DNA from: a virus
Lineage: Duplodnaviria; Caudoviricetes
Virus record (IMG/VR): IMGVR_UViG_3300029705_000100
Span: 8,043-72,042 of that record
Reading direction: 5' to 3' (one strand)
DNA: 64,000 nucleotides
A model generated the notes under the pieces. That model had not been told where the DNA came from, did no database searches, and saw only the letters and a program-made list of their open reading frames with translations. Of the stretch, positions 1 to 64,000 are shown piece after piece (position 1 is the first letter of the stretch; each line of letters begins with the position of its first letter). The position numbers and the translations under genes were made by a program.

Positions 1-266
1 GATTCTCCTTCAATGATTGTGTTGTGGATGCGTTGAGCGATGGTGCGCGGCGTCAGAGCACATCCGTATACCTTGCCGTCATCCATAAGGATCAACGCTT
101 TGGTCATGCGTCCCGCTGTCAGGTCATGAAATACTTTCTCGTCTTTGGCGGCCTTGCAGAGCCGTCTTGCATTGGCGGACAGCGGCATGAGGATGGCTTC
201 AATGCGATTGGCGCAAAGGACATTGCCAAAGCCAACATGCACAAATCGCTAAGGGGTAAATGCCAT
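1..266 (-). CDS. remA: RemA/DUF370-family regulator homolog, partial (runs off left edge); in-frame TAG at codon 6 (249-251)
   Basis: AGGAG RBS, ATG at 266. MAFTP*RFVHVGFGNVLCANRIEAILMPLSANARRL...DLTAGRMTKALILMDDG...LTPRTIAQRI resembles RemA (INIGFGNIVSANRIIAI...DATYGRRTRAVII). Absent from ORF track because of the TAG. Confidence 0.8.
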
Positions 267-314
267 GAAATATAGCTCCTTCCATTAGGATATAAGCAGG
301 TCTTCAACCTGCGA

Positions 315-401
315 TGGTAGGAGCAGCGGGGATCGAACCCGCACGCCGTTTCCGGCAGCGGTTTTAGAGACCGCCGCGTATGCCAGTTCCGCCATGCTCC
401 C
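315..401 (-). tRNA. Amber suppressor tRNA with Leu identity, anticodon CUA (365-367)
   Basis: GGGAGCA-TG-GCGGAACTGGCATACGC-G-GCGGT-CTCTAAA-ACCGC-TGCCGGAAACGGCGT-GCGGG-TTCGATC-CCCGC-TGCTCCT-A-CCA. Full cloverleaf, 87 nt, encoded CCA, long variable arm, A73, A15:U48, Leu-type D loop. Confidence 0.93.
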
Positions 402-514
402 TTGATAGAGGGACTTTGTTTTGTCCTTCATCTATTAAGGGGGATATTTTGGCAAAAAACTTACAAGGATGAGTGATTTTGTTCGAACATTGATGTGTTG
501 GGAATAGATAGGGT

Positions 515-545
515 AAAAGAAAACAGTCACGAATACTCGTGACTG
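515..545 (-). terminator. Rho-independent terminator between cargo gene and tRNA
   Basis: CAGTCACGA/TCGTGACTG stem followed by TTTTCTTTT on minus strand. Confidence 0.65.
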
Positions 546-557
546 TAGTAGAACGTA

Positions 558-1286
558 TTATTTGAGTGCCTTCATACTCAGAAAGTTACTTTTAGCTTCG
601 TTGTAATCAGATAGTTTTCTATCCCATTCAGTACGGTTTTTGGCATTACGCAATACTTCGTGCAAGGACACATCGTCGAAAAATCTGGTGTCTTCATCAC
701 AGTAGCATTTTTTAGCATATTGCTTGAGGAAAAGTAGTACCGCTTCGCTACAACGCTCTTCTTCATACTCTGGGGGATAATTGTGGATGCATTTCGCCAT
801 ATCGTCAACGAAGTACAGCATGTCGGGTGGAGGATCAAAATCCACAATTTCACCGTCAATTTCAACAGGAACGGGTTTGGTATCGATACCATTTTTCTTT
901 AGCTTATAATCGAAATATGAGCGTAGACTCTCCGCACATACCATTTCATAGTCATACCTGCAAATATCCTTGTATTGTGATAGTAATCTGTCAATGGTGG
1001 TTCGTTCACTTTTCCACAAATACCTTGCATTATGGTCTTTCAAAAGTGAAGTGAGTTCCTTGTATCTTTGCCAAGTTGGTTCATCACTCAAAACCGTCCG
1101 CATCGGGTACAAAACCGACGATTTCAGATTGTTTCTATTACCGAACCTGAAGTATATCGCAGATATTATCCATGAAACAACACCGGATAAGACGACGGAT
1201 ATCAAAGTGAAGATGTTAACGCGGATATTCTCCGGAGCAAAAATCCATTTCAGATAGGATATAACATACGCAATAATCTCTTTCAT
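558..1286 (-). CDS. Hypothetical protein with N-terminal TM helix (cargo)
   Basis: AT-rich ORF, hydrophobic IFTLISVVLSGVVSWIISAIYF; start uncertain (ORF extends to 1346). Confidence 0.6.
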   Translation of the reverse strand: MKEIIAYVISYLKWIFAPENIRVNIFTLISVVLSGVVSWIISAIYFRFGNRNNLKSSVLYPMRTVLSDEPTWQRYKELTSLLKDHNARYLWKSERTTIDRLLSQYKDICRYDYEMVCAESLRSYFDYKLKKNGIDTKPVPVEIDGEIVDFDPPPDMLYFVDDMAKCIHNYPPEYEEERCSEAVLLFLKQYAKKCYCDEDTRFFDDVSLHEVLRNAKNRTEWDRKLSDYNEAKSNFLSMKALK

Positions 1287-1519
1287 GTGACACCGTCCAA
1301 TCAAAGAATGTGCCTTTATAATACAGCAAATGGAGGTATTTTTCAATACTGCTGCAGAGAATTCAGATAATTGAGGCCCAAGCTATGCTTACATAGAATT
1401 ATGAAAAAAGTTCACAACGATAGTGGAAACACAGCTTGAATAGAGGTATATTCATATGAGGTTAGATGCTGAAACATAATATATGATAACTACCGAGGTG
1501 TACAAGCTGAAATATCCTA

Positions 1520-2302
1520 TTGATTAACTCGCAGAGCCGCGTTATACTATATTCGAAGGGAATACAACCGATGATGATTGAGAGGACGAGATATATGAAC
1601 GGTACTATCTATGCAATACGTACGGAAACTTTTCCTAAAAGAAGATTGATCAATAATGACCTATACAGATTGTTTGAACTCGTAGCAAAAAAGTATCAAG
1701 TGATACATGGTAAGCGTGGAAAGGTTATCTATTTATACGACGATGTCTTCGAAGATGTCTACCTTTCAAACACTGTACGGTTTGTGGCTAAATACGCAAC
1801 AAAGTTCATTAGAAAAGTACCACTTCAAGACAATCCTATACATTGTGCAGGAAGGTATGCATCGAAGAATCAAATAATGCTTTTGCTGAATGAAAATAGC
1901 CGGTTTACAAGCGTAAATACTATTTTTATTCTTGTCGTGTTGTTGAAGTTACTCTTACTCGATGAACGCAGTAAAGAATTTAGAAGTCTATCATGTCGGA
2001 AAAAGTCTATCATGCCAGTAACAGAAAAGAACATTATTCCTAACGATATAGAAGATGATATAGCTGTTTCATTTTTGAAACAGCATATAGAAAACTTGCT
2101 CAATGACCCATATTATCGACATTATGTTCCTTCACGACATTTTATATGTGAATATATTATAGATTGTTACGATGAACTGATTGAGCTCGTAGGCAACAAT
2201 GCTATTGACGCATTGCGCAAGGCAAAGAATAAAGCGGAAGGTAATATGGGGATACTTGCTGTACAGCCACTCCAAATGCCGCGTTATCCAGCAACCATGT
2301 AA
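1520..2302 (+). CDS. Hypothetical protein (cargo)
   Basis: 260-aa AT-rich ORF; start uncertain. Confidence 0.55.
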   Translation: MINSQSRVILYSKGIQPMMIERTRYMNGTIYAIRTETFPKRRLINNDLYRLFELVAKKYQVIHGKRGKVIYLYDDVFEDVYLSNTVRFVAKYATKFIRKVPLQDNPIHCAGRYASKNQIMLLLNENSRFTSVNTIFILVVLLKLLLLDERSKEFRSLSCRKKSIMPVTEKNIIPNDIEDDIAVSFLKQHIENLLNDPYYRHYVPSRHFICEYIIDCYDELIELVGNNAIDALRKAKNKAEGNMGILAVQPLQMPRYPATM

Positions 2303-2322
2303 ATGCAATGAGGAGGAGGAGC

Positions 2323-2979
2323 ATGAATAAAAGCCCGTTTGTACCCGAATACCTAAGGAATATGCGTATAAATACATCAGAAAAATGGATGTTTTTTGCG
2401 TCGGGCATCAGTTCATATATTGCGTCCCTTTTTGCAGAAGGATTCGTTGATGAAGGACGACCCTTGTTAGTAAGTTTTATCTTTGGCTGCGGTGTTTTTT
2501 TAGTGCTATTCATATTATCCGTTTGTATTGTTTATTTGAAAAACAATTCATTCTTTTACCGTTATCCAAAATTGAGTGAATATGAGATATGCAGTTTCAT
2601 TAACGAGAAGTTACCGGATGAATTGATGAGAATAAATAACAATATGGCAAACGCTACTGACGATATAAATAAACAGGTTTTATGCCAACACATCTTGTAT
2701 CAACTTGATGTAATTATTGAATTCATTGATACACATGTTAGAGAAAGCTTGATTAGGGGGAAGAATAACAATGGCCATATGACCGGTCGTGCCTATAATC
2801 GCATAACCCCTGATCATTTAGAGGCCGTACTGTGTTGTATATACAGAATACTTGTACAAGTGATTCCTGAAATACCTGACAATACGTATGCAGAGGCACT
2901 GAAAAGACAAGTAAATTGCCTGGCATGTAAACATCTGAAATGTGATTCAATAGAAAAAAGCAAATACATGCCTTTATGA
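2323..2979 (+). CDS. Hypothetical membrane protein (cargo)
   Basis: GAGGAGG RBS, ATG 2323, one or two N-terminal hydrophobic segments. Confidence 0.6.
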   Translation: MNKSPFVPEYLRNMRINTSEKWMFFASGISSYIASLFAEGFVDEGRPLLVSFIFGCGVFLVLFILSVCIVYLKNNSFFYRYPKLSEYEICSFINEKLPDELMRINNNMANATDDINKQVLCQHILYQLDVIIEFIDTHVRESLIRGKNNNGHMTGRAYNRITPDHLEAVLCCIYRILVQVIPEIPDNTYAEALKRQVNCLACKHLKCDSIEKSKYMPL

Positions 2980-3208
2980 ACAAGAAATGAATTTGATATT
3001 TGAGTGTTAGCTTCTTTACTGTATGATGTCGTTTCTTCAAGCAAGCGCTGTTGTAACTAGCAAGTTGGCAATCCAATCTATCTTCACAAGTGAATAGCAG
3101 TGGAGTAAGCCAAAATAATAATATTACCTCAGCCAATCGTAATATAACTTATGATTTGCTGAGGTATATTGTTCTGGTTTTGAACTCGTGTTGAGATTCA
3201 CACAAATA

Positions 3209-3847
3209 TCAATCAGGAGAATACGATTTCTTTCCGTGACAATTTTTGAATTTTTCTCCACTACCGCACGGGCACGGATCATTCCTGCCAACGGTTATGT
3301 TGGATAGTGGATTCCTGTTGTACAATACCAATGCTCGTTCATATATAGCTTGCTCAGCTATAGGTGGCAATCCGATATCTACACTCCCGTCATCATTGGC
3401 ACAATACCTAAATAGCATGGATAAAGCGAACGCGTATGCATCCAGTTCAATTTCCTGCAAAAAATGAAGGCTTGTAGTCTCAGGAGTATTCCTTACATAA
3501 TGATCAAATTCTTGTTGCCATCGGAGAATATTTTCCGGCCTCTCTGCTGCAAAGTTGTTGTCTTTCTGGAACTGTATTTGCTGCATCTGATATATATGGC
3601 GAATTTCGTGCCATATAATGTACATTACATCCTGTTCAGTTGTTGAGCAAAACCAATCAAGATTAACCGTGATTGTTCCATTTGAAGAAGCCACAGCTCC
3701 AATCAGTTGATCGTTGAAATGGTTGATGTTCACTCTTTCAAACGCAAAACGCACTTGTCCACAGTTCAAGAAAGGCATATGCCTCACAGAAAGCATCAAA
3801 AGATGATTAAGATATTCAAAGGCTTTGATTGGTTCAAATTCTCTCAC
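3209..3847 (-). CDS. HExxH metallopeptidase-like protein with C-terminal SEC-C Zn motif
   Basis: [11 protein letters not shown], downstream EIELDAYAF, and [20 protein letters not shown]. Confidence 0.75.
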
Positions 3848-4161
3848 TACTCATCCTCCTCCGAACCCATTCTCTCACAGTACCACAAAAATTCGAGGAG
3901 CATTTTATTGTCCAAGTATCGCCTAAGTAGGGCTATACCTTCGCAAGCAAATGCCATACCCATCATCCAGCAGAAAGGTATGTAATCATTCTTAAGTAAT
4001 CTGGAGACACCAACGACTCCGCAAACAATGGCTATTACGCTCCATACAATCGGGATGAAAGGAGATATTGCACAGTATATTATGCGTATAGAGATCATGA
4101 CATTAGATATCTGATCAGAGTGATTCGAATTTCCTTTTTTGGTATGGCACATAGTCTTCAC
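3847..4161 (-). CDS. Small 2-TM protein; ends TAG-TGA double stop
   Basis: Two hydrophobic segments; start uncertain. Confidence 0.5.
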
Positions 4162-4316
4162 TCCTACGACGTTGTCTCTGTATAGGGTTTCAATTACGAT
4201 TTATTATAGCATTTTCTCGTCTTTATATCAATCCTCGGAATAAGAGGAAGGAATTGTAATTTATCTCACGAATAATGTATTAGGAACATATATAAACGGC
4301 AAAGAGGAAGGCTTAT

Positions 4317-5180
4317 ATGAGCAATGTGACACTTGAGACCTCTAACTTCGGAGAGCAATTAGGGGCATATGATTTTTTTAACGTTCTTGTATCAGGTTCC
4401 GTATTCTTGTCATCTTTGGCTGGTATACTACTCTGCATCAATGACAATCTGAAGACTCTCCCGGATATATCGATTCTTGAAGGCGTTATTATTTCAGTTG
4501 CTGTTTTTTTTGTTGGACTCATAATTCAAGAATTGGGATCAATAGCGGATCGGTGCATATGGCATGTTAAGGAGTATAACTATCGCAATTTTCTAAAGAA
4601 ATCTTGTCCGGACAAACGAATTATGAGAATGAAGCGGACTTGGAAATATGTTGATAAAATTGCATACAGGCAAGCGCAAAAATCCAATAAGGGAAACTGT
4701 GTGATCCACAACCCAGCACTGCTTTGTTATTATAGAGAGATTGCAAAAGGCATCATTGACAGTCATCCAGTAATAAAGAAGAAAAGTGAGTATTCGGATC
4801 CACTCGAAGATGACAATGTAAATCGTTGCATCTTCAGTTATTGTGAATACTTCGTTTCCTGCCAAGGAAAAGATAAGAAGGTAGAAAAACTTCGTGCGCT
4901 GTTTGCCATGGCACGCTCATTCGCAACATGCTCGTTTTTGGTTGAAGTGTGTTCGTTGATAGCGATAATATACAAGTGCTTGAGCGATAATCTAAACCCA
5001 CTCTCAATTTATACAAATCCAGACCTACAAAAATTGTCAGCAGTGTGCATAGTATGTCTTGTGTCGTATCAGTTATTTAGAAGCAGAATGACCAAAATGA
5101 TGCGCTATATGATTCTGATATTGATGGGAAACTACAATGCATGCATCATCTCTCAAGAATTTGAGCGTAAAGGCTCTTAA
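4317..5180 (+). CDS. Multi-TM hypothetical protein (cargo)
   Basis: 287 aa; N-terminal AYDFFNVLVSG plus 2 TM, two further C-terminal TM segments. Confidence 0.65.
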   Translation: MSNVTLETSNFGEQLGAYDFFNVLVSGSVFLSSLAGILLCINDNLKTLPDISILEGVIISVAVFFVGLIIQELGSIADRCIWHVKEYNYRNFLKKSCPDKRIMRMKRTWKYVDKIAYRQAQKSNKGNCVIHNPALLCYYREIAKGIIDSHPVIKKKSEYSDPLEDDNVNRCIFSYCEYFVSCQGKDKKVEKLRALFAMARSFATCSFLVEVCSLIAIIYKCLSDNLNPLSIYTNPDLQKLSAVCIVCLVSYQLFRSRMTKMMRYMILILMGNYNACIISQEFERKGS

Positions 5181-5295
5181 ACATAGACCAAAAACAATAG
5201 CTCGATCATGATATAACCTTCTGATTGTTATCCAATGATCAAGCTATTGTTTTACTTATTAGTTGTGGTGAGGATCACCGGGCCCGAACCCGCAT

Positions 5296-6237
5296 GGGTA
5301 CTGTCAAGAGTTGTGCGCAAATTCGTTCACAGGCATCCAGTGAAATCAGCCGTCAGGCAATAGAGGCGTCGCTCAAAGCGGCCTCCAAGTGCTTCATGTT
5401 CATGTATTTCTTACTGCCCCATTGAGTACCTGCGACATGGCGCAGGCGGGCACAGACGAGCATCAGCGCGGAATTGCCGTCGGGGAAGGTTCCGACTACT
5501 CTGGTTCGCCGTCGGATCTCGCGGTTCAGGCGTTCAATGACGTTGTTCGTGCGGATCCAGGTCCAATGCTCGGAGGGGAAATCGCAGTAGGTCAGCGTTT
5601 CTTCAATGCTGTCTTCCACCCTCTTCGCCGCCTCTTTCAGTTTTATCTCGCGGAGTTCAGCGATGACTGCTTTAGCTTTTTCTCGCGCTGCCTTTTTGCT
5701 TTCCTGTGCATGAATCGCCTTGAGCATCTTCGCCACCAGCTTCACCTTCGGACGCGGCACGACGGAAAACACATTGCGGTAGAAATGTACTATGCAGCGC
5801 TGGTATTTCGCATCCGGAAATACCTCGCCGACTAGCCTCCAGCATGCCCAGACATTTGTCGCCCACTATCAGCTTTACGCCCTCCAGACCGCGTCCCTTC
5901 AGCCACTGGAAGAAGCTGACCCAGCTGGCCTTATCCTCCTTCATGCCCTCTGCGGCCCCCAGAATCTCGCGATATCCGTCTTCATTGACCGCAATCGCCA
6001 CCAGAATGGCCACATTTTCGTATTCTCCGCCCCAGTTCCGGCGCAAATAGATGTCGTCCACATACACATACGGATATTTTCCACCCTGCAGCGGTCGGTT
6101 ACTTCCTCGTTCAGTGTTACAATCTTCTCAGACATGGTTCCCAGGCTCCTTTCAGAATGTGTAGTGTCGCGACTTCATTCTACCACTTGCCTGTCAACCA
6201 TGTCTATTTCTTTTTGCGCAACTTATTGTACCTTATC
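5296..6237 (-). pseudogene. IS256-family element, internally deleted and frameshifted transposase
   Basis: MSEKIVTLNEEV N-terminus joined directly to the YVD..YLRRNWGGEYENVAILVAIAVNEDGYRE region; frameshift near 5830; C-terminal IRTNNVIERLNREIRRRTRVVGTFP. Ends approximate. Confidence 0.85.
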
Positions 6238-6397
6238 GACATATTTCTTTTTTGCACTACAAATTGTGCATTATCTGTAACCGTCAAATAATCCCTCGTG
6301 AGAATTGTCGCTATCTATCGCGATATCTCGATATCTACAAAAAAGGCTCAGAAGTATCCGGTCAAACGGTACCACTGAGTCTTTTTGTATAAGGCTG

Positions 6398-8047
6398 TTA
6401 TCGGCAAAGCTTCTGTAGCTGCTGATTCCATGGCGCAAGCATATCCAGGAAGTCACAGGAATACCGCCCACCAGCGCAAGGCATTTGCTCCAGCAGGTAT
6501 TTCAGATATTTGTATGGATCCAGTCCGTTGGCTTTCGCCGTTTCCACAATGCTGTAGACTGCAGCACTGGCTGTGGCTCCGTTCGGCGTATTGCAGAACA
6601 GCCAGTTCTTCCGGCCCATCACGAATGGACGGATGGCGTTTTCATCCAGATTGTTCGAGATCGGAATCCGTCCATTCAGCAGGAAACTGCCGAGAATCTG
6701 CTTCTGGCCGGTGGCGTAGCCTACTGCCTTGCTCAGCGGTGAATTCCGCAGCGCGTCAATGCTGCTGCACCATGTCCAGAATGCTTCCAGCACGGGTCGG
6801 CTTCGTTTTTCGCGTTCCGTCTGCCGTTCTGCCGGAGAAAGTCCTGCGAATTCACGCTCCAGCATGAACAGTTTTTCGCAGAATTCAAAGCCTTCCTTCG
6901 CTTTGCTGCCCTGTGCCTGTTCTCCGTTCGGATCGCTGCCGGGAATTGCTTCGAGAAATTTCCGGCGCACATGTGCCCAGCAGCCGCAGCGGGTTCCGTT
7001 TGTTACCTTGCTGTACCCTGCGTAGCCGTCCGTGACAAAGTATCCATCATACCCTTCGAGGAACTTCTTTGCATAGTCCCCGGAGCGTCCCGGCTGGTAG
7101 TCGAATAGAACAATCTGCTTCTCTTCATGTTCACCGCTCCGGTAGGCCCACATGTAGGACTCGCTGGTCGGCGTCCTTCCCGGCTCCTTCAGCACCTGTA
7201 CTGTGGTTTCGTCGCAGTGCAGAACACTGCTCTTCAGTAGTTCCGTTTTCATATGCTTCCATAGCGGGGCAAAGTAGTCTCTGTCAACCGCCAGCACCCA
7301 GTTCGCCAGCGTTGCACGGTTCATCTTAAGGCCTGCTCTCTCCCAGTCCTGCACCTGCCGGTACATCGGAATGGCCATGACATATTTGTCGTACAGCACC
7401 TGTGCTACAGTACTGGCGCTGGCTATACTGTGCTTCAGTACGGGATATCTGTGTCCCTCCGGAACATCTGCCTTTACGAGAACCATTCCCGGTCTGTTTT
7501 CACATTTGGCACAGACATCCATGTCCGCACGTTCACAGCCTTCACACTCCGGCATACCATCTTCACAGCCGCGGCAGGCGTAGGTCGCGCGGTAATACTC
7601 GTGAACCTTTACCTGTGCAGGAATATATTCGCACTCCTTGCGGATATACTCCCTGCCGATTTTCTCAAGGGCATGTCCGCAGCGGCGGCAGACCTGCTCT
7701 TCTGCCGGGAGCTCGTATTCATGAATCTCCACCGGCAGCCCGTCCAGCAGTTCCTCACGGCTGCGTTTCCTGGCTCGCTTGTGCGATTTCACTTCAACCG
7801 TGCTTTCTGGGAGCGCTGTCGGATCTTTTGCTTTGGCGTCCGCTGCATCCTCTGCTTCGTTGAAGATGCTCAGCTGTTCGCAGTCCGCCGGGAGCACAGT
7901 CAGCGGCTTCTGTTTTTCGCTCTTGCTCCCGAAATGTGCCTTCTGCAGATTACGGTACATGGCGCTCATATTTTCCAGACGATTCTCCAGATACGTTATG
8001 TACTCCTTCGCTTCGGGCGACAGCGTTCTTTCGTCCGGACGTTCCAT
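6398..8047 (-). CDS. tnpC: IS66 DDE transposase TnpC
   Basis: LHCDETTVQVL, CWAHVRRKF, ISNNLDENAIRPFVMGRKNWLF, LLPW-like end. Confidence 0.92.
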   Translation of the reverse strand: MERPDERTLSPEAKEYITYLENRLENMSAMYRNLQKAHFGSKSEKQKPLTVLPADCEQLSIFNEAEDAADAKAKDPTALPESTVEVKSHKRARKRSREELLDGLPVEIHEYELPAEEQVCRRCGHALEKIGREYIRKECEYIPAQVKVHEYYRATYACRGCEDGMPECEGCERADMDVCAKCENRPGMVLVKADVPEGHRYPVLKHSIASASTVAQVLYDKYVMAIPMYRQVQDWERAGLKMNRATLANWVLAVDRDYFAPLWKHMKTELLKSSVLHCDETTVQVLKEPGRTPTSESYMWAYRSGEHEEKQIVLFDYQPGRSGDYAKKFLEGYDGYFVTDGYAGYSKVTNGTRCGCWAHVRRKFLEAIPGSDPNGEQAQGSKAKEGFEFCEKLFMLEREFAGLSPAERQTEREKRSRPVLEAFWTWCSSIDALRNSPLSKAVGYATGQKQILGSFLLNGRIPISNNLDENAIRPFVMGRKNWLFCNTPNGATASAAVYSIVETAKANGLDPYKYLKYLLEQMPCAGGRYSCDFLDMLAPWNQQLQKLCR

Positions 8048-8164
8048 GACACCGCCTCCTGCGTCTTTTTCTTCCAACTCCATTATATCACGATCCGGCA
8101 GACAGAACAAATGACCGGCGCGCAGCAGCACCGGCCAAAATTCGAAAAGTATTAAATCTCTGTG

Positions 8165-8524
8165 TCACACCAGATCTTTGGCACTGACATTTTTGTGCGC
8201 TTTGGGCTGAACGATGCTCAGGCCTTCCATGAGCCAGCGATACTGCTGCGGGGTAAGTTGCTGCACTTCTTCACGGGTACGCGGCCATTGATAGCGACCG
8301 TTCTCCAGACGTTTGTACAGCAGCACAAATCCGTCTCCGTCCCAGAACAATGCCTTGAACCGGTCGCTCCTTTTGCCGCAGAACAGAAAGACTGCCTGCT
8401 GTCTGGGATCCAGTCTGAACTGCTGCTGCACCTGCGCTGCCAGTCCGTTGATTCCACGGCGCATATCTGTGTATCCGCAGGCAATATATATCGCGCCGAT
8501 CTGACTCAGATCCAGCGTCTTCAT
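8165..8524 (-). CDS. tnpB: IS66 accessory protein TnpB (Orf2)
   Basis: IYIACGYTDMRRGINGL...FLFCGKRSDRFKALFWDGDGFVLLYKRLENGRYQWP. Confidence 0.92.
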   Translation of the reverse strand: MKTLDLSQIGAIYIACGYTDMRRGINGLAAQVQQQFRLDPRQQAVFLFCGKRSDRFKALFWDGDGFVLLYKRLENGRYQWPRTREEVQQLTPQQYRWLMEGLSIVQPKAHKNVSAKDLV

Positions 8525-8904
8525 CTCAGCATCTCCAGAACCTGACGCAGCAGCGTTACGTCCGCTCCATTCCGGATTTCTATGCTCCATTCGCCTTTGC
8601 GCAGAATGATCTGCGCAGCTTCAACAGCGTCCGCCTGTTGTGCTTCGCGATATGGAACCGGTTCGAAGTTTACTGGAACCAACTGCCTTTCTTCCGCCTG
8701 GATCATCTGCGATCCTATGCTTTTCACGGGCAGTTTTCTGCTTTCCTGTTCCCATACCAACCTCTGCCGACGATAATATGTCGCAACCGGCATACTGTGC
8801 TCTCTGCACCATGCCGCTACCGTCTGACCGCTATTCCGGCAGTCATGTACCATTTCCCGCCACTGCTTCAGTATTGCTTCACGTTTTGCATCCTGTAGTT
8901 TCAT
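8521..8904 (-). CDS. tnpA: IS66 TnpA (HTH)
   Basis: WREMVHDCRNSGQTVAAWCREH; ATGA overlap with tnpB. Confidence 0.85.
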   Translation of the reverse strand: MKLQDAKREAILKQWREMVHDCRNSGQTVAAWCREHSMPVATYYRRQRLVWEQESRKLPVKSIGSQMIQAEERQLVPVNFEPVPYREAQQADAVEAAQIILRKGEWSIEIRNGADVTLLRQVLEMLR

Positions 8905-9100
8905 CCCATCCGCCCTCTCATGAGAGTTAGCGCTATCTCTCGCTATATCGCGCGATTCTATTATCTCATGGGAATTTTCGGCGCGGGGAGACGGGGGATT
9001 ATTTGACGCTTACCATTATCTCGATGATGGTGGTGTCTAGTAACTATGGCTAGAATAAGAACCAATGCGATCTTTCTTTTACTTCATCTCATCTATGATT

Positions 9101-9132
9101 AAAGCCACTTTGCAGAGGAGCAAAGTGGCTTC
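9101..9132 (+). terminator. Terminator-like hairpin used as the group IIC intron target
   Basis: AAGCCACTTTGC-agagga-GCAAAGTGGCTT, ending 5 nt before the intron 5' end. Confidence 0.8.
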
Positions 9133-9137
9133 TTTGA

Positions 9138-11054: not shown

Positions 11055-11220
11055 CGATCTGAAATGGATAGCATCTATCTATAATTAAGTAAAAAAAGTA
11101 TTATTTGCACATATACATTTCTTCTGGTACTGTCTACATATATTATACCACCGAATTCTCTCTCTATTCGGTATACTCCAATACGGGTGCCAGAAGATCG
11201 TTTGGCTTAATTGACCTGTT

Positions 11221-11826: not shown

Positions 11827-11850
11827 TATAACTCCTACGTCCAATCATAT

Positions 11851-12030
11851 TTATTTCTCTTCGGGCTGATATGAAAGTTCTTGAGCAAATTCTAAGGTTT
11901 CACCATAATCCTCGTCGCTATTGCTAAGTTCAGGGATTACAGAAACATCTCGTGTAGAACTTCTATTTATGGGTAACGAAAAACCAATAATGATAACCGC
12001 GATGATTAAAGCAATAAAAAAGAAACTCAT
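11851..12030 (-). CDS. Small single-TM protein (59 aa; below ORF-track cutoff)
   Basis: MSFFFIALIIAVIIIGFSLP + acidic tail; ATGA overlap with upstream gene. Confidence 0.6.
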   Translation of the reverse strand: MSFFFIALIIAVIIIGFSLPINRSSTRDVSVIPELSNSDEDYGETLEFAQELSYQPEEK

Positions 12031-14372: not shown

Positions 14373-14379
14373 AATAAAC

Positions 14380-50518: not shown

Positions 50519-50530
50519 CGGAGGGATAAG

Positions 50531-53100: not shown

Positions 53101-53113
53101 TGGGAGGAATACA

Positions 53114-54670: not shown

Positions 54671-55786
54671 ATGAATAAGGTATCTTTTATGGCACCGCGG
54701 GTGATGATGGCGGCAACTGAGCAGAACGATATTTACATGACTGTCGTGATGCGCATGTTCTCCACGGCGCCCAACAGAAACGGCTTTGCTGTGAGCGAAG
54801 CATTTATCGACAATATCGTTGCCAATGCGGCGAAGTACACCTGTCTTCCGTAGTGCGCGGACGCTGGTCGCCTGAGAAACGGCGGCATGGACGGCTTGAC
54901 ACACCGATTGAACAAGACCTCCGGCATCTTTGAGAGCGAGCAGATCGGCTCGTTCTTTTCTTTTGCCAAGGAGATTGACAACGGCGTGATCAGCCTACTT
55001 GGCGAAGCGAGAATTCCCAAGAGAAATCCGATGCTTTGTGAAACGCTCATGCGGCTGTATGAGGCTGGCGCACTGAATTTCTCGTTTGAGATACTGGTAG
55101 GCAATGCCACCCAGATGGATGGCGTCACGCTGATCGACGCTGTAGAAGGCAACGAACTGATTGGCATGGCGGTGGTTACGACTCCCGCTTGCCCCGAGGC
55201 GACAGCGATCAAGCTGATCGCCGAAGATGAAAACGATAACGATGATGACAGAGAGGATGAAGAGGAAATGGACGAGAAGGATAAGAAGATCGCCGAACTG
55301 GAAGGCAAGCTTCAGTAGGCTGAGCAGAAGGCGACCAATGATGAAGAGCTCCGTAAGAAGGACGAGGAGCTTACCAAAGAAAAGGAGCAGCGCGAAAGGG
55401 CTGAGGCTGAGCTGACCGAGGCAACCGGCAAGCTGACCGAAGCGGAAACCCAGCTGGCAGAAAAGGATACCCGCATTGCTGAACTGGAGGCGCAGGTATC
55501 CGAGCTCGACCCCATCAAGGCTGAGGTCGAGCAGCTGCGTGCTGACAAGGCTGCCGCTGAACTGGCTGCCAAGCAGCAAGAACTGACCCGATTTGCGGAA
55601 GCTCAGGGTCTGGACGCCAAGGAAGCGGCTATCGCCGAAGCGATCCAGAAGGCAGACTATGCTGCTCTGGTTGCTGAATCCATGAAGAAGGAAAAGACCG
55701 AGACCAAGCCTGTCGTCGCATCCTACGCCATGGGCGGCGGCATTACTGCCAAGGGCGAATACGATGACCTGCTGGGCAAGGCCTGA
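54671..55786 (+). CDS. Prohead protease/scaffold protein; TAGs at 54851 and 55316
   Basis: PNRNG, CLP*CAD, FSFEI, AVVTTPA, then a long coiled coil. Confidence 0.8.
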
Positions 55787-55808
55787 TGATGAATAGGAGG
55801 AATGAGAT

Positions 55809-56237
55809 ATGGCTGGTTATGTGACTAAGCTGATGGGCCACGTCTATGACGGCGCCTATACTGCCGCCGAACCGCTGATCAACGGCGTGTTCGCAGAGAT
55901 TACCGCAGACGGCGTCAAGAAGACTGCCGCCGCAAAGGACACCATCCTGCGCGTTGAGGAGAAGACCGAGCTGTGGGGCAATCCCGCTGTGGTGTAGAAC
56001 GTCACCGGCGTTGGCACCGACGAGGTCTACTTCGTTGAGAACGAGTGGGAAGTTGACGAGAATGCAGAATGGAATGAAGCGGATTACACCCTGCCCACTG
56101 GCAAGTATGTGCGCATGAAGCGCCTGCTGCCCGGCGAACAGGTGATCATGTCCGTTGCTACTGAACTGCATTCCGCACTTGCGGTTGGCGATTCCGTGCA
56201 GCCCGCAGCTGACGGCGTGATCGCCAAGACCGCTTGA
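55809..56237 (+). CDS. Head decoration-like structural protein; TAG at 55995
   Basis: MAGYVTKLMGHVYDG...PAVV*NVTG; lies between protease and capsid. Confidence 0.7.
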
Positions 56238-56256
56238 TAGGAAGGAGAGATAAACT

Positions 56257-57258
56257 ATGCCTCAGATTGATATCCGAAAGGACAGCAAGCTGGTGCAGCT
56301 GATCACTGCCCAGGCGCGCGGCGAGCGTGTTGATTCCGATCAGGCCGACAAGGCTGCAAAGTAGATCGCGGAGCTGGCTTCCGATCCTACCCCGCACAAC
56401 AAGTATGCAATTGGCCAGCTTGTGGGTTTTACCGTCAATGAGATGGTACGTCCCCAGACCGACTGGCTGAACCATGTAGCTGACGTCAAGCACGTTGGTT
56501 ATGGTGAAAAGGCCTCTTTCCGCGTCAAGCAGGAAGGCATCCGTGCATTCATCATGGCGAAGGCCGGTACTCCCGCCCGTTCCAAGATCGCGCACAAGCA
56601 GGTCACTCTGGACACCATTGCTGTATCTGCCAGACCTGTGATCAACCTGTACGAGCTGCGCACCGGTCGCGTGCAGATGGCTGACCTGATCCGTGACGCC
56701 GCCAATGAGATGCATCTCAAGCAGGTTCAGTACATTCAAGGTGTACTGCACAGTGCGGCGGAGAATTGGGAATCTCCCTTCTATGGCACCGGTACCGGCA
56801 TCGTCAAGACTGTGTTGAATCCCATGCTGCAGCATTGGATGCGAACCGGTTCGGTTTCCCTGCTGGGTGATATCGCGATCATCTCTCAGCTGGCCGAACA
56901 GACCGGCTTCACTGCGGCGGCTGCCACTCAGCAGTTCTCCCAGAACGTGATTGATGAGGTCATGCGCACCGGCCTGATCGGCACCTACTACGGCGCCAAG
57001 GTCATCAACATGGTCAACCCCTATCTGGGCGACAATGTGACTCCGGTGATCGATACCAAGCGTCTGTATATTCTGCCTTCCGGCGCTTCTGCGGACATGC
57101 GTCCTCTGAAGGTACTGTACGAGGGTGACGTCCAGTCCACTGAATCCACCAACATCGACGATCTCGCCTATGAGGTTCGTCTGGACCAGTGGTTCGGCGC
57201 CGGTATCGTGGTCGGTAAGACTCCGACTATGAGTGTGTACACCGATACCACTGCCTGA
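56257..57258 (+). CDS. Major capsid protein; TAG at codon 36 (56362)
   Basis: 333 aa; GAAGGAG RBS; DKAAK*IAELA; position in the head module. Confidence 0.82.
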
Positions 57259-57748: not shown

Positions 57749-58138
57749 ATGACGGATATACAGAAGATGGCTCAGGAGCTGAGACAGCGCACCGAATGGC
57801 AGGATACTCCGGTGGAATTGGTCAACGAAGATTATCTGGAGATCGTCCGTCAGGCAGTACGCCATCTGTATGTGATGACCGGGCGTTACACTCAGTATGA
57901 TGATTCTTCGGATATTGCTCTTAGCGCAGACGAATATGAGTATGTGCTGACTACTGCGGAGATTGGTTTCTACCGTCGCGTGCAGTCGGACGTTAACCGA
58001 ATCGTCGGTTATTCTACTGACGCTATGACGATCACCAACGCGGACAAGCCCTATGCCAACATCAGTCAGACAGTGAACGAGCTTCTGAACAGACAGCGGA
58101 TTCTCTACTACAAGATGACGCGTTTTGTACTTCTGTGA
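57749..58138 (+). CDS. Head-tail adaptor-like protein
   Basis: Position; helical 129 aa. Confidence 0.6.
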   Translation: MTDIQKMAQELRQRTEWQDTPVELVNEDYLEIVRQAVRHLYVMTGRYTQYDDSSDIALSADEYEYVLTTAEIGFYRRVQSDVNRIVGYSTDAMTITNADKPYANISQTVNELLNRQRILYYKMTRFVLL

Positions 58139-58151
58139 CGGAGGTGGATGG

Positions 58152-58832
58152 ATGAAATTCTATGTGCCGCCAAAGCTTCGGCAGGATTTCAAGGACTGGC
58201 TACATACTGACGTCCAAAATGCCAACTATGATTTCCAGATCATCCGCGACTGGTATCAGCAGACGAAAGTGGCGCCGATCCGGGCGCTGTTCTTTCCGAT
58301 ATCCTGGAAATCCAAAATCGGAAACTCGGACGCCAACAGTAACTTCAAGACCAGCTATGATTACATCATCCGCAAGGGCGACATCGCCATCCGCGAGGAT
58401 GGCATGATCCTGATGCTGAACTGGCAGGTGCAGAACAATCCCAACAACCAGTCCACACAGGCGATTGCTTGCAATGCCCGCTTTCAGTTTGAACGGCATG
58501 TGGACGAGAAGGTTGACAGCAAGGGGTTCCTGATTGAGGAGGCGCATGACGAGATCATCGCACCGAAAATCCCCGGCGTGTATGCTGAGTATACCGGCAG
58601 GCCTGATTATGCGGCAAGCTACAATACGCCCGGTATATCGCCGGATCACCTGCTGACGGTGCAGGTGCAGTTCAATCCACGGACGGATCTGATCCGGCTT
58701 GGCGATGAGTTTGCCCTCATGCACAGCCGGTACCGCATCGTCAACCGCGTGGATACAGAAGTGGACATTGATCGCCAATACGGGATCATAAACTAGATGG
58801 CGCGAAGGATCGCCGGAGAGGAGTCGCTATGA
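58152..58832 (+). CDS. Head-closure-like protein; TAG at 58794
   Basis: YGIIN*MARRIAGEESL-TGA; read-through gives an ATGA overlap with the next gene. Confidence 0.72.
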
Positions 58833-59386
58833 AGCAGAGCTGCAATCGGATTTCTCTGGATGAAGCTGCGCTGATGGCCGCTCTCCGCGAAGAAGCGAAG
58901 GATGCGTTGGAACGGGAAGGGCAAAGGCTGCTCAGTCATATGCAGCACGAAGTTATAAATACCACCCACGGCGGCGCCCCTGGCAAGCCGGACTGGCGTA
59001 AGGAAATCGTGCGGAATCTGGATAAGACAGCGGTGGCTGTCACGGATGATTCGGTATCGATGGACTTTGGCTATTCTCCTTCTGATAAGGCGGATGAAGT
59101 ACGTGCCATGTTGGTTGAGGCAGGCTCCGGCAGTGCAGCCGGTGGCAAGCCTATTACGGCGGGACCGAATGGCAGAAGCGTATGGAACAGTGAGCTGGAT
59201 GGAAAGCATCCGTCCCGAGCTAAGAGCGTGTACAAGCTGCCGGCTGAATTCAACCAGAAGGGCAACAAGTTTGTTGAGAATGCGATGCGTATGATGCAGA
59301 CGGAGTTCGGTACGATAACGGAGACAGTATTTGCAACTACTCCCGACAGTGCTTACTATGGAAACGTGAAGGTGGATGAGCGATGA
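58829..59386 (+). CDS. Tail completion/neck-like protein
   Basis: Position; ATGA coupling at both ends. Confidence 0.6.
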   Translation: MKQSCNRISLDEAALMAALREEAKDALEREGQRLLSHMQHEVINTTHGGAPGKPDWRKEIVRNLDKTAVAVTDDSVSMDFGYSPSDKADEVRAMLVEAGSGSAAGGKPITAGPNGRSVWNSELDGKHPSRAKSVYKLPAEFNQKGNKFVENAMRMMQTEFGTITETVFATTPDSAYYGNVKVDER

Positions 59387-59856
59387 AGAAACTGCGCACA
59401 TGGCATGATAACTGGAACAACGTGATCCGCGAGGTTTTGTTTCCGGACGCCGAATAGAAGACGCTGATGTGTATTCCGGAAGATAAGCGGGAGAACATCC
59501 GCGAGTTCATCGACCGCTACTTCATTGAGGATGCCATGCCGGACGAACTGGTTCTGAATGAAGACGTACGCGTGATCTGTTACGAAACCGAGGGTACGCA
59601 GCTGGGAACGCCGCATGTGCTCAGAAAATTCCTGGCCTTTGATATTTATGTCAAGGAAGATGCTCTGTATAACGTTGGAGCAGATCGACTACAGCGTCGG
59701 GACAAAAAAATAAGTCAGCGGCTCAAAGAACTGCTGACTGGGAAAGAGCATGTATGTGGTATACGATTTGGGTATGAGGATGAATACCATCTGGGAGCCA
59801 AAACGATTGGCTATAGAAGGTATCATGTGGTATTCTCATATGTGACTACATGGTGA
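59383..59856 (+). CDS. Tail terminator-like protein; TAG at 59455
   Basis: ATGA overlap start; LFPDAE*KTLMCIP. Confidence 0.72.
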
Positions 59857-60040
59857 TCATTTTTCCACGAATGTCTTGACGATCTGAACGATCTGCTCGT
59901 GGCGTTCTTCTGGCGCGGTCTTCATGTAAGCGGCGACCTTCATAATGTGCTCATCGATAGGAATGAGATCCACATCCTCGCTTGAGAGATTGAGTAGATC
60001 AGAAAGGTCGATCTGCAAGGCCTGCGCGATAGGCGAAAAT
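59857..60040 (-). pseudogene. Possible C-terminal remnant of an XRE-family HTH regulator
   Basis: IAQALQIDLSDLL resembles the end of an XRE HTH; N-terminal half absent. Confidence 0.35.
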
Positions 60041-60042
60041 AC

Positions 60043-60546
60043 ATGACAAAATTGGTATGTGCATTTACTGGACATCGACCAGAAAAGCTGGGATTCCCGT
60101 GGGATGAAAGTGAGCCTCGCTACAAGCGGCTCAAACAAAAACTATTTTGTGAAATATTACAATTGACCCGTGACGGTGTGAGTGTCTTTATTACCGGAAT
60201 GGCAAGAGGCGTAGACCAGCTTGCAGCAGAGATCGTTCTCTCTTTGAAGGATGTCGTTCCGGACAGAAATCTGCAGCTGTGGGCTGCTGTACCATATGAC
60301 CGTCAATCGTTGAGCTGGTCTCCCAAGGATAAGGCGAGATACGATGCTATCCTTAAAAAAGCAGACAAGATTGAATATGTAAGCCACAATTACTACAATG
60401 GATGCCTGCTTACGAGGAACCGTTACATGGTAGACAATGCCAGCCACCTGATTGCAGTCTATGATGAGAATCAGGGTGGCGGCACTAAATACACGGTTGA
60501 CTATGCCCGAAAGAAAGGGCTGAACATTATTATCATCGAACCATGA
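60043..60546 (+). CDS. SLOG-family YspA/DUF1273 protein
   Basis: CAFTGHRP, FITGMARGVD, AAVPY, RNRYMVDNA, GGTKYTVDYA. Confidence 0.88.
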   Translation: MTKLVCAFTGHRPEKLGFPWDESEPRYKRLKQKLFCEILQLTRDGVSVFITGMARGVDQLAAEIVLSLKDVVPDRNLQLWAAVPYDRQSLSWSPKDKARYDAILKKADKIEYVSHNYYNGCLLTRNRYMVDNASHLIAVYDENQGGGTKYTVDYARKKGLNIIIIEP

Positions 60547-60563
60547 AGGAGGTTTGATTCACA

Positions 60564-61397
60564 ATGGCACAGTACATTGATCAGATCGCCGGTTACATTG
60601 CAGACAACCCGAATTAGGATTTTGAGCGATGTGACGGCAAGGTGTTTTCCTACTACGAGGTAAACACCGCGAACATGAGCGCGACCAACAACACCCTGTC
60701 TATTAACGGCGGTCAGGGCAACTATCCGCTGGCATTCATTGAGACCGACAAGGCGTAGGAATTCACCTTCGCCAGCTCTCAGTTTTCTCTGGATATGTTT
60801 GCCATGGCGAACGCCGTTCAGATGAAGCAGGGCGATGTTGCTACTCTGGAGAGCAAGCTGTATGAGGTGAAGGCCGGTCTCAACGTAACCATCCCTTATG
60901 AGACGCAGGCGGAATCCGTGAAGATCAGCGGTTTTGAACAGGCGGATACCGCAGCTGCTGGCAAGTTCTCCGTAGCTGCCGGTGACGGTGATACTCCCAC
61001 TACGGAGATCACCTTCCACGAAGGCGACATTGCTGTTGGCGATACCATCCGCATTGCCTATCGCCGCCGTGTGAACGGCGCATCCATGGCGACGGTCAAG
61101 ACCAACTCCACTACCGCCAAGGGCGCTCTGTATGCACACTGGCCGGTCTACTCCAGCGGCACCGATTGCACCGAAAGCTCCATCAAGGGCTATCTGCATC
61201 TTTATATTCCGCGTGTGCGCGTGACTGCGCTGCCCGGCTTCGACAACAGCTACAAGTCTGCTGCTACCAACAGCGTGACTTTCAGCGCCATCGACCCGAA
61301 GCGCGCAGACGAAAAGATGTACGATCTGTACTACGAGCCGCTGGATGCTAACGGCGCAGTTGTCACTACGCCCACCGGCGAAGTGACCTGGAACTGA
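60564..61397 (+). CDS. Major tail (tube) protein; TAGs at 60615 and 60756
   Basis: AGGAGG RBS; YIADNPN*DFERCDG; TDKA*EFTFASSQF; in frame with track ORF 60795. Confidence 0.78.
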
Positions 61398-61407
61398 TGA
61401 TTGATCG

Positions 61408-61438
61408 GGGACACAGCATGAGCGCTGTGTCCCTTTTC
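61408..61438 (+). terminator. Rho-independent terminator after tail tube gene
   Basis: GGGACACAGC/GCTGTGTCCC stem followed by TTTT. Confidence 0.75.
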
Positions 61439-61462
61439 TGATGCAGAAGGAGGAAAAGGACA

Positions 61463-62977
61463 ATGGCGAAGTATACGAACTAGCAGTAGGTCGCCTTTGC
61501 CGAAAAGGCACTTGCTGAAGGCTGGAAATACTGGTACGGAACGTGCGGCTATAAGGCCACTCAGTCCCTGTACGAGAGAAAAAAGAAGCAGTATCCCAAG
61601 CACTACACGGATGGCAGAACTGCGACTTATAAGAAGCATATTGCGGAAGGCCGCATGGTTGCCGACTGCGTCGGTCTGATCAAGGCGTTCTTCTGGACTT
61701 CCAACGGCACTGCTGAGAACAAGTATCAGGCAAACAACTGCCCTGACCGTTCTGCCAATGGTATGTTCTCCCTGTGCGAGAAGACCGGCAAGATCGCGAC
61801 TATTCCCAACACCCCTGGTCTGGTGGTGTGGAACGACGGCCACATCGGCGTCTCTATTGATGGCATCTATGCCATCGAAGAGCGCGGTTTCAACTACGGA
61901 ATCGTCAAAACCAAGATTTCTGATCGCAGCTGGACCAACTGGGGTAAACTGCCTGCATCCATGCTGGACTATGTGAACGGCGATGTGCAGGAGGATCCTG
62001 ATGATGCAGCTGAATGTCCCTATACCGAGCCCACGAAGAATCTGAAGAAGGGTGCCGAAGGAACCGGCGTCAAGTGGGTGCAGTGGATGCTGGAGGGCTG
62101 CGGCTACTCCGTGGGCAGCTATGGCATCGATGGCGATTTCGGCTCCGCAACGCATGCTGCAGTAACGAAATTCCAGAAAGACCAGAAGCTGGAAGTGGAC
62201 GGAGTTGTGGGCAAGCTGACCCGCGCTGCGCTGAAGGCTGCACAGCCTAAGGTTGAGATTGATCCGGATGGCGAAGACGATCCTGATGATGAAGATGACG
62301 ACAAGCAGGAACATCAGGCTCCTGAAACCTCTGCACCTGCTGACCCTGAGCCGGAGGTCAAGGAGGAATATGATATCAAGGGAAAGATCGCAGATCTGTC
62401 CAAGTGGCAGGGCGCGATCGACTGGAGCAAGGCTGCCCGCGAACTGGACTTCTGCATTCTCCGTGCGCAGTACGGTCATGAGAAGATTGACGAGAAGTAC
62501 AAGGAATATGCCCTCGGCTGTGAAGAACATGACATTCCCTACGGCGCGTACTCATACTGTCTGTTCGATGACGAGGAAACCGCGGTTGAGGAAGCTCAGT
62601 TCTTCATGGAGCGCATTGCGGGCACCAATCCGCTGTATCTCGTTCTCGACGTCGAGCCGGGCGGTGTGAAGGCGCGGGATATCCGCAAGGAGGTTTCCGC
62701 TTACATTGCAGAGCTGCGCAGGCTGGGTGTGCAGCGCATCGGTCTGTACATCGCCCACCATGCGTACAAGGCGTACAACATCAATGTGGACGAGGCGGAC
62801 TTTGTATGGATTCCCCGATACGGCTCCAACTCCGGTCAGCCTGAAAAGGAACCGGATCATCCCTGTGATCTGTGGCAGTATACCTCCAATGGTCTGCTGG
62901 GCGGCGTCAAGGGCCGTGTGGATCTCAATAAGCTGATGGACGAAACCCGCATGGCGTGGTTTCGCGGAGAGGAGTAA
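61463..62977 (+). CDS. Endolysin: NlpC/P60-like peptidase + peptidoglycan-binding domain + GH25 muramidase; TAGs at 61481 and 61487
   Basis: MAKYTN*Q*VAFAEKAL; ADCVGL, GHIGV; VDGDFG/VDGVVG; ADLSKWQG, VLDVE, LWQYTS, VDLN. Confidence 0.9.
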
Positions 62978-63318
62978 TGAGCATGAACATGATTGACCTG
63001 ACTCCTGTATTGGAGGCATAGATCGGCCTCCTTGCCACGATCATCACCGTCAAGGTGATCCCGTGGCTGAAGAGTAAAACGACCAAGGAACAGCAGGATT
63101 ACCTGCTGGCAACTGCCCGCGTACTGGTGTATGCGGCTGAGCAGGTGTATGGCGCCGGCAAGGGCGACGTAAAGATGCAGTATGTGCAGGACGAGCTGGA
63201 AAGTAGAGGCCTGAGTATTGATCTTCCCGTCATCGAGGCGGCTGTACGCGAGATGAACCTTATCGAGAGCTGGGAAACCACCATCGAACTGGAGGAAACT
63301 GAGGATGGCAAGCACTAA
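62977..63318 (+). CDS. Holin (LL-H-like); TAG at 63019 within the TM helix
   Basis: IDLTPVLEA*IGLLATIITVKVIPWLKSK...AAEQVYGAGKG...IEAAV. Confidence 0.88.
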
Positions 63319-63715
63319 GCCCATCCCGCCGACAGATCAGACGGAAAAGGGACTGCCGCAGGTCGGCAGTCCCGAAAATACCGTCGTAATCGGCGGTGAA
63401 TAGATTGAAATCAAGCCCACGAAGCTGCGCTATCAGCGCAACCGGACTGCGGCATTTTATAAAGTACTGGAGATGTATCCCATTGCTGATATTCTAGCCA
63501 TGGAAGCTGGAGCTTTCGGCGACGATCGCGACGGCGACAAAGCCTTGATGGACTGGCTGATTGCGGTGACAGATCATCCCGATCTGGTGACTGCCCATTA
63601 CGATGAGATGGACACCGGAACCATCGAGCAGCTGCTCACGATCTTCCGGCGCGTGAACCGGATTGATGAAAAGGAACAGAAGCTAAAAAACCTGCAGACG
63701 GCACGAAAGGCGTAA
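63305..63715 (+). CDS. Tail assembly chaperone (gpG-like); TAG at 63401
   Basis: VVIGGE*IEIKPTKLRYQRNR; ends just after A-AAA-AAC slippery site. Confidence 0.75.
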
Positions 63716-64000
63716 CCCTTGATCGTGCCGTCGCAATGATTGCTGCGCATCTGGGCGTGGTAGATGAAGAACGCATCAACGACATGAGCTATGTCTTCTT
63801 TGATGATGTTCTTCGGGAATAGGGTTACAAGCTGAACTACGAAGCGGTTGCCAACTACGCAGGCAATGCGTTCTGCGAAAAGAGCTGGGATATGATCCAG
63901 AAGAGCAATCCCTTCAATATTGTCGAAGCCCGCAGCGGCTCTCAGGCAATGGGAAGCCTTGCAAGCTTCCTGGGATCGAGCAAAATCACAATCATGGGAG
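63685..64000 (+). CDS. -1 frameshift extension of tail chaperone (gpGT-like), partial; TAG at 63820
   Basis: Heptamer AAAAAAC at 63685-63691; -1 frame open to the window end: TLDRAVAMIAAHLG...DVLRE*GYKLNYEAV. Confidence 0.72.

Follow-up and report, generated by a model that had tools for sequence, protein, structure and literature searches.

A prophage of gut Clostridia that very probably reads TAG as leucine through a tRNA of its own

The main survey of phages with reassigned stop codons observed only two changes, glutamine for TAG and tryptophan for TGA, and found TAG to align best with glutamine "in most cases" (bioRxiv 10.1101/2021.08.26.457843); other papers on TAG-recoded phages likewise assign or assume glutamine (PMC7886860; PMC9523058). 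UAG as a leucine codon is described for chlorophycean and Scenedesmus mitochondria (NCBI tables 16/22), chytrid mitochondria (PMC6131824) and phyllopharyngean ciliates (PMC11687900), and the literature that we searched reports it only for green-algal and chytrid mitochondria and this one ciliate group. Here we analyse a 64,000-nucleotide stretch of phage DNA (the window), comprising bases 8043-72042 of the 72,042-bp IMG/VR virus record IMGVR_UViG_3300029705_000100, for which an earlier note made from the letters alone had proposed that TAG is read as leucine. Codon exchange within the phage lineage, distant homologues called under the standard code and the tRNA-Leu body of a phage tRNA with the anticodon CUA, hereafter tRNA(CUA), are three independent lines in support of this reading, and we conclude that TAG is very probably decoded as leucine through this tRNA. 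The note's remark that it knew of no phage with this assignment also holds for the searched literature, in which no report of such a phage was found, subscription journals lying outside the coverage.

Each of the 39 positions in that note's list proves to be where an in-frame TAG starts within an open reading frame (ORF) obtained by read-through. TAG 249 is among them; it falls at codon 6 of a RemA-like gene that extends beyond the left edge of the window and whose ATG is preceded by GGAAGGAG. A further TAG at 21253, codon 3 of a 178-aa gene with AGGAGG ahead of its ATG, raises the total for the window to 40 in-frame TAGs in 24 genes, with no in-frame TGA or TAA, and the 8 kb to the left of the window contribute about 12 more, in the RuvC, NUDIX, NrdD, ThyX and 231-aa genes. 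By this count about 50 leucines of the phage would be written as TAG, a codon that makes up ~5% of the leucine codons in the recoded genes. The gene architecture that had been described is found as well. The quoted peptide contexts (KNDI*L, HP*EYY, MS*N, AK*KIG, FG*V, WSFSK*, P*IITEG, GKTWLTA* and EA*IGLL, the asterisk marking TAG) were all located, in the two recoded modules 21 of the 28 complete genes stop at TGA and 7 at TAA, the four-base overlaps of start and stop codons are present in the gene coordinates (17659-17662, 51448-51451, 58829-58832 and 59383-59386), and the claimed ribosome-binding sites are seen as strong Shine-Dalgarno motifs before the ATGs of genes with N-terminal TAGs. 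Pfam and PHROG domains run across the TAG positions of dnaE, terminase, portal and the PD-(D/E)XK nuclease; in the latter three the domain matches cover most of the length, and in DnaE the PHP, NTPase, finger and HHH domains (four Pfam families) extend over residues 27-905. Moreover, contigs from three other faecal samples show 0 differences over stretches of 3.9-4.2 kb that cover a dozen TAGs, which argues that these codons are not sequence errors. A comparison of coding density by greedy ORF tiling discriminated poorly between the codes.

Under table 11 the TAG-bearing genes are fragmented, and public gene calls of DnaE relatives (P0002, P0061, P0113 and others) break off at query residues 577-578 or 788, immediately ahead of TAG positions, so that the databases already hold code-11 fragments. 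Such fragments are also what pseudogenes of a decaying prophage, or sequencing and assembly errors, would leave behind. To compare the genes within their lineage we fetched 11 IMG/VR contigs and 11 contigs of metagenome-assembled genomes (MAGs) of Clostridia, labelled Aristaeellaceae, Candidatus Faecivicinus or Eubacteriales and obtained from sheep, goat, rabbit and human gut, whose proteins are 60-96% identical to those of the window over their full lengths. All 272 of the 272 in-frame stops in the aligned genes of 20 related phage or prophage sequences are TAG, none being TGA or TAA, and no frameshifts need to be assumed. This excludes gene decay and shows that the whole lineage is recoded. 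With TAG sites common to the relatives, full-length identity and identical contigs from independent samples added, the probability of decay or error is practically nil.

When the residues aligned with each TAG were tabulated, leucine was dominant, and not glutamine or tyrosine. Opposite the TAGs of the window the relatives carry TAG (97), leucine (135), isoleucine (18), glutamine (4) or another residue (9), the leucine codons being CTG (87), CTC (16), TTG (14), CTT (12), CTA (3) and TTA (3). Leucine thus accounts for 135/166 (81.3%) of the non-TAG codons, a share that in the same alignments is 80.2% for ordinary leucine columns, 7% for isoleucine columns and 1.3% for glutamine columns. Since it takes two base changes to go from TAG to CTG or CTC, which make up most of the replacements, the exchange tracks the residue and not mutational nearness. 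The reverse comparison agrees, with leucine at 63 of the 87 window codons that face TAGs of the relatives. Site by site, leucine has the plurality at 26 of 32 informative TAG sites (binomial P = 3e-22), compared with 80.7% of ordinary leucine sites, and the log-likelihood of the residues in TAG columns is -146 under a leucine profile versus -427 for methionine, the next best.

The same picture is seen in individual genes. Leucine stands in 14 of 14 relatives at residue 186 of the HNH protein and in seven of nine at residue 34 of the exonuclease; residue 71 of the terminase is leucine in 12, isoleucine in one and TAG in two, residue 265 of the portal leucine in 13 and TAG in five, position 55995 leucine in 11 and TAG in four, and position 56362 in the capsid gene TAG in eight and leucine in five. 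Some sites have hardly moved, 48130 being TAG in 6/6 relatives and 54851 in 15/16. At the TAG sites of dnaE the relative L001 has CTC, TTG, CTG and ATT, and at most of those in the genes of 17659..22841 it has leucine or TAG; codon 6 of the RemA-like gene is leucine, leucine, isoleucine or TAG in the relatives. The head-tail and tail sites are mostly leucine codons or TAG, 60615 being isoleucine in five relatives. In a search for cultured relatives, tblastn with the portal protein matched none of 50,697 GenBank phage records.

Independent of the lineage, DnaE was searched against 1.84 billion representative proteins called under the standard code. Among the best 150 matches, which were examined, residue 579 in the KxDxLGL motif is leucine in 134 of 134 homologues and residue 789 has a leucine plurality (46/121), while residue 1016 is phenylalanine, leucine, isoleucine or valine and residue 1010 is variable with leucine the commonest. 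Homologues in the PDB have leucine at DnaE 579, at SSB 3, which aligns with a leucine of Bacillus SsbA, and at ThyX 73 and 191; they have valine or alanine at DnaE 789, and residue 181 of the primase-helicase aligns with isoleucine or valine in T7 gp4 and Twinkle. The PDB alignments of NrdD do not include its TAG, and no relative of the terminase was found in the PDB.

What would read the codon is a tRNA gene that scores 52.1 bits with the Rfam tRNA model, where the gathering score is 29. Its D stem counts 3 bp and its D loop 11 nt, including A14, A15 and G18G19, and its D arm is nearly identical to that of tRNA-Leu; it further has a long variable arm of 13-15 nt, U48, A73 and an encoded CCA. 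Identity elements of leucyl-tRNA synthetase (LeuRS), as known from work in E. coli, are among these features. Of seven tRNA-Leu genes of host MAGs, the tRNA-Leu(UAA) gene from a Faecivicinus MAG is 75% identical to it and the other six are 56-64% identical, compared with 48-49% for the tyrosine and serine tRNAs of the host MAG G006, and all six of the six annotated best matches among the GenBank phage records are tRNA-Leu. Homologues occur in six other places (L001, L013, L015, L115, G006:C59 and G006:C35). Across the seven sequences the cloverleaf is kept, with both-sided, compensatory changes at 13 of 24 stem pairs, and the CTCTAAA anticodon loop and A73 are invariant. PMC11028032 counts LeuRS as one of the synthetases for which the anticodon bases play no part in recognition, so a leucine tRNA should keep its identity when its anticodon becomes CUA.

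ARAGORN labels the gene 'tRNA-Pyl', which could be taken to mean that TAG encodes pyrrolysine. The program prints this label for every CUA anticodon, whatever the rest of the tRNA looks like. Pyrrolysine decoding takes pylS and pylBCD genes and a compact tRNA, in which the D loop is very small and the variable loop has 3 nt; judged on the build of the tRNA, the 11-nt D loop and the 13-15-nt variable arm fit tRNA-Leu instead. The aligned residues, moreover, are leucine and not lysine-like, and on these two grounds the chance that pyrrolysine is inserted is negligible.

Could TAG nevertheless stand for glutamine (code 15), as is assumed for the published TAG-recoded phages? Glutamine is found at 4 of the 166 aligned residues, and glutaminyl-tRNA synthetase (GlnRS) is encoded in 4/5 host MAGs. 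However, these four residues amount to 2.4%, as opposed to 81% for leucine, and glutamine is not among the eight best-fitting residues by log-likelihood. A glutamine reading would also turn the invariant leucine at DnaE 579 into glutamine, and the long variable arm and A73 of the tRNA are unlike the 75-nt glutamine-type suppressors of the unrelated phages L017-L020. We regard this reading as very improbable, and leucine remains the assignment on which the rest of our discussion is built. The idea that leucine was chosen because the hosts are devoid of GlnRS was rejected, as GlnRS is above the family cut-off in the four MAGs; GatB was not found in the host MAGs.

Three further observations concern tRNAs of this kind. 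The unrelated 83-138-kb IMG/VR phages just mentioned (L017:1226-1487, L018-L020) have two adjacent tRNA(CUA) genes beside tRNA-Leu(UAA), one of 75 nt and glutamine-like (U1, G73), the other of 91 nt. A scan of IMG/VR with a pattern reaching from the D arm to the anticodon, too narrow to estimate prevalence, gave 19 matches, five of them tRNA(CUA) and all of this lineage. Finally, contig C35 of the host MAG G006 (L107:4815-9157) contains the 3' part of dnaE, tRNA(CUA), remA-like and ruvC, a block that resembles all or part of a second recoded prophage.

The record is a temperate phage of gut Clostridia integrated beside a host tRNA-Lys gene: at the left end of the contig a host tRNA-Lys(UUU) gene, on a flank of ~380 bp that is all the record shows of its own host, is followed by a tyrosine integrase, which marks the contig as a provirus. 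Is TAG then a sense codon of the host itself, with the prophage merely following? The suppressor tRNA was indeed found in MAGs binned as Clostridia. There, however, it lies inside a prophage beside dnaE, and prfA, the gene for release factor 1 (RF1), is above its family cut-off in 5/5 MAGs. In addition, where the G006 prophage sits within a 300-kb host contig (G006:C59), 62 of 235 long ORFs (26%) in the adjoining 180 kb of host DNA end in TAG. A host code of this kind is hardly tenable. With a host of the standard code and a prophage in which TAG is sense, two codes must coexist in the infected or induced cell. The prophage itself has at most one TAG terminator in ~72 genes, and both of its recombinase genes, the left-end integrase and the one between the TAG-free block and the replication module, are free of TAG. 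The single candidate terminator (32704-32706, minus strand; region 32685-32706) is, in the TAG-free early block, the sole TAG at which a plausible gene stops. The ORF after it starts 18 nt on in the same frame behind GGAGGGAGG, and with the suppressor present the products of 218 aa and 125 aa on its two sides would fuse.

Several points weigh against leucine as the meaning of TAG or against its efficient use. The identity of the residue is drawn from sequence comparison and from the build of the tRNA. At 6 of the 32 informative sites the plurality is isoleucine (4), valine or phenylalanine, and codon 24 of ThyX aligns with glutamine, glutamate or alanine; the scatter at TAG sites equals that of ordinary leucine columns (19% non-leucine). 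In the phage of the window the tRNA is set apart from dnaE by a 14-kb cargo that ends in a terminator-like hairpin (546-523), and a consensus scan found no promoter between this hairpin and the tRNA. The hosts carry RF1, and the 72-kb contig has neither a release-factor gene nor one for a class I synthetase, nor does G006:C59 give a release-factor match, an absence that is weak evidence because the contig is incomplete.

A further possibility is that TAG is mainly still a stop, with weak or ambiguous read-through that yields mostly truncated products or mixed residues. The hosts retain RF1, an anti-RF1 factor was not found in the contigs searched, and natural amber suppressors are usually partial. 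On the other hand, the TAGs lie in abundant or essential proteins (capsid, portal, terminase, DnaE, SSB), many of them no further in than codon 40, and all TAG-bearing genes would be crippled at once if read-through were weak. TAG is moreover almost wholly abandoned as a stop by the phage, and the system is kept by 20 relatives. We therefore consider predominant termination unlikely. A sense codon for leucine in the replication, nucleotide-metabolism and virion genes is, as judged from the sequence, the best explanation.

The tRNA(CUA) is leucine-like and conserved, and TAG stands in frame and behaves as leucine in the comparisons. In the mechanism that we propose, the phage encodes a tRNA-Leu with a CUA anticodon, the host LeuRS, being blind to the anticodon, would charge it with leucine, and the charged tRNA would compete with host RF1 at UAG and decode it efficiently in vivo. 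Such suppression would be harmless to the phage, as no phage gene depends on TAG to stop. Without the tRNA, all TAG-bearing genes would be truncated, usually inside the first few dozen codons. In the relatives L001 and G006:C59 a gap of 40-50 nt separates dnaE from the tRNA, which is encoded downstream on the same strand and followed by remA-like, thyX and nrdD, so that it is part of the leftward replication operon; in the phage of the window the gap is taken up by the ~14-kb cargo. The tRNA also lies downstream of a ~22-kb code-neutral block. Being RNA, it could be excised from its transcript although translation of the TAG-bearing ORFs upstream still stops early.

This arrangement would amount to a gate, in which the host code serves for the integrase and early genes, and replication and virion proteins await the phage tRNA. 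It fits the model put forward for glutamine-recoded prophages, and we think it likely for the phage of the window. The locked state would cost only short peptides from the replication and virion genes with 5' TAGs. Indeed, 17 of the 39 TAGs fall within the first 40 codons, compared with 96/719 (13%) of ordinary leucine codons (Fisher P = 8e-6). Among relatives of <88% identity, 34% of the codons aligned with a window TAG are TAG too, compared with a retention of 4-16% for TTG, CTA, TTA and CTT; the high value for TAG may partly reflect its single synonymous one-step neighbour (TTG). No base that would favour suppression stands out after TAG, where there is no bias relative to ordinary leucine codons (P = 0.71). 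The 5' enrichment and the retention of TAG suggest a translational gate, and we infer from them a role of the code in timing; that the placement of TAG acts as a selected gate is a proposal that we hold tentatively, leaning slightly against it. It is similarly possible, at somewhat less than an even chance, that this is the first natural viral UAG-to-leucine code in a bacterium of the standard code and serves as a switch, the lytic genes being locked until tRNA-Leu(CUA) is made. Many runs from faecal or rumen samples contain the phage; in two metatranscriptome runs only 5-7% of the sampled words were present, and no expression is claimed from them.

The features of the window are collected in Table 1. 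On the minus strand, from right to left, the TAG-free block is followed by the recombinase, the replication module, the cargo, tRNA(CUA) and the genes from remA-like to the integrase; leftward of the tRNA these are RemA-like, ThyX, an intein-bearing NrdD, the 231-aa protein, NUDIX, RuvC and integrase. The plus strand carries, from 46.2 kb, the AEP primase-like, exonuclease, HNH, terminase, portal, head and tail genes, and the right end of the contig interrupts the tail module; CheckV estimates its completeness at 37%. The phage genome is larger than 72 kb, and perhaps ~120 kb judging from the relative G006:C59. Outside IS66 and the group II intron the cargo has a GC content of 37-45%. The genes of the TAG-free block, which are identical under both codes, stop at TGA (~23), TAA (7) and TAG (1). 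The portal gene ends in TAG-TAA (54653-54658), where the phage code adds one leucine and TAA is the actual stop. The intein of NrdD has a LAGLIDADG domain (L012:4318-7251, left of the window), and in L001 the two halves of NrdD abut without an intein.

Table 1. Features of the window, in order of position (window coordinates; TAGs given by their first base)
Feature	Position	Strand	In-frame TAGs	Remarks
RemA-like gene, 5' part	1..266	-	249	Pfam RemA-like, E = 1.2e-19; directly downstream of the tRNA
Suppressor tRNA, anticodon CUA, tRNA-Leu body	315..401	-		87 nt; ARAGORN, Rfam tRNA
Low-GC cargo/mobile DNA	558..14400	n/a		Between dnaE and tRNA; no TAG inside genes or as stop
SEC-C motif protein	3209-3847			Within cargo
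IS66 element	6398-8904			Within cargo; Pfam/Rfam matches
Group II intron with reverse transcriptase	9222-11054			Within cargo; Pfam/Rfam matches
TNT-like (tuberculosis necrotizing toxin-like) domain protein	13149-14372			Within cargo; weak match
dnaE (Pol III alpha)	14486..17662	-	17642, 15926, 15296, 14633, 14615	1058 aa
Rest of replication module	17659..22841	-		Pfam matches
PD-(D/E)XK nuclease		-	18397	Replication module
176-aa gene		-		Replication module
Primase-helicase		-	20169, 19476	Replication module
178-aa gene		-	21253	Replication module
SSB		-	21663	Replication module
AAA_24 ATPase		-	22641, 22572	Replication module
Tyrosine recombinase	22896..23813	-	none	Pfam Phage_integrase, E = 1.9e-23
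TAG-free block	23837..45600	-		~31 mostly unknown genes; anti-restriction protein, DUF4942, reverse transcriptase; family matches
Reverse transcriptase (RVT_1)	37621-38916			Within TAG-free block
AEP primase-like, 148-aa, 244-aa, exonuclease and HNH genes	46173..51451	+		
AEP primase-like gene		+	47610	
148-aa gene		+	48130, 48217, 48232	
244-aa gene		+	48658	
Exonuclease		+	49466, 49535	
HNH protein		+	51086	
Large terminase and portal	51448..54658	+	Terminase 51454, 51658, 52759; portal 53132, 53906, 54653	PHROG matches
Head genes	54671..57258	+	371-aa head protein 54851, 55316; 142-aa protein 55995; probable major capsid 56362	PHROG matches
Head-tail and tail genes	58125..64000	+	58794, 59455, 60615, 60756, 61481, 61487, 63019, 63401, 63820	Contig ends inside

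A leucine code of this kind would have consequences beyond the single phage. Annotation pipelines offer only table 15, with glutamine, or table 4, and so produce broken genes or put glutamine in place of leucine, often in hydrophobic cores; such misassigned glutamines would degrade structure prediction and homology searches for this lineage. For the evolution of codes it would mean that a phage can reassign a stop via any anticodon-blind synthetase, and not only via GlnRS or tryptophanyl-tRNA synthetase. The 5' clustering and the conservation of TAG make the idea of the code as a timer or lysogeny lock testable in a temperate phage whose integrase and early genes are code-neutral, and if true the gate would be a translational lock on the lytic programme. 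A natural leucine-type amber suppressor that works alongside host RF1 in Clostridia may, finally, aid the genetics of gut bacteria that are hard to handle.

How, then, does the phage of the window compare with known systems? It resembles the code 15 phages and prophages (crAss-like, Lak, Garnet, Topaz; bioRxiv 10.1101/2021.08.26.457843; PMC7886860; PMC9523058) in that one stop codon is recoded in a host of the standard code. Like them it encodes a tRNA(CUA) and keeps its integrase and early genes free of the recoded stop; some of their members are prophages in Firmicutes such as Oscillospiraceae, and a role in late-gene timing or in the choice between lysis and lysogeny has been proposed for them too. 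It differs from them in the amino acid, which is leucine and not glutamine, with a tRNA of the long-arm leucine type, in that recoding is as heavy in the replication and nucleotide-metabolism genes as in the virion genes, and in that TAG is sparse and concentrated near gene starts; in comparison with Garnet and Topaz its genome is also larger. A leucine-inserting amber suppressor as such is familiar from E. coli, where the leuX mutant supP (Su6) yields a tRNA-Leu(CUA) that differs from tRNA-Leu(CAA) by a single base change and inserts leucine at UAG, LeuRS ignoring the anticodon. That, however, is a laboratory mutant in a cell in which UAG is a stop, whereas here the gene is natural and conserved and dozens of essential codons depend on it. 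The organellar and protist codes share the meaning of the codon but are whole-genome codes, in contrast to a virus that brings its code into a standard-code cell and so places two codes in one cytoplasm. Taken together, the class of mechanism, a suppressor tRNA in a standard-code host with a TAG-free integrase, is known, and the amino acid is new within the searched literature.

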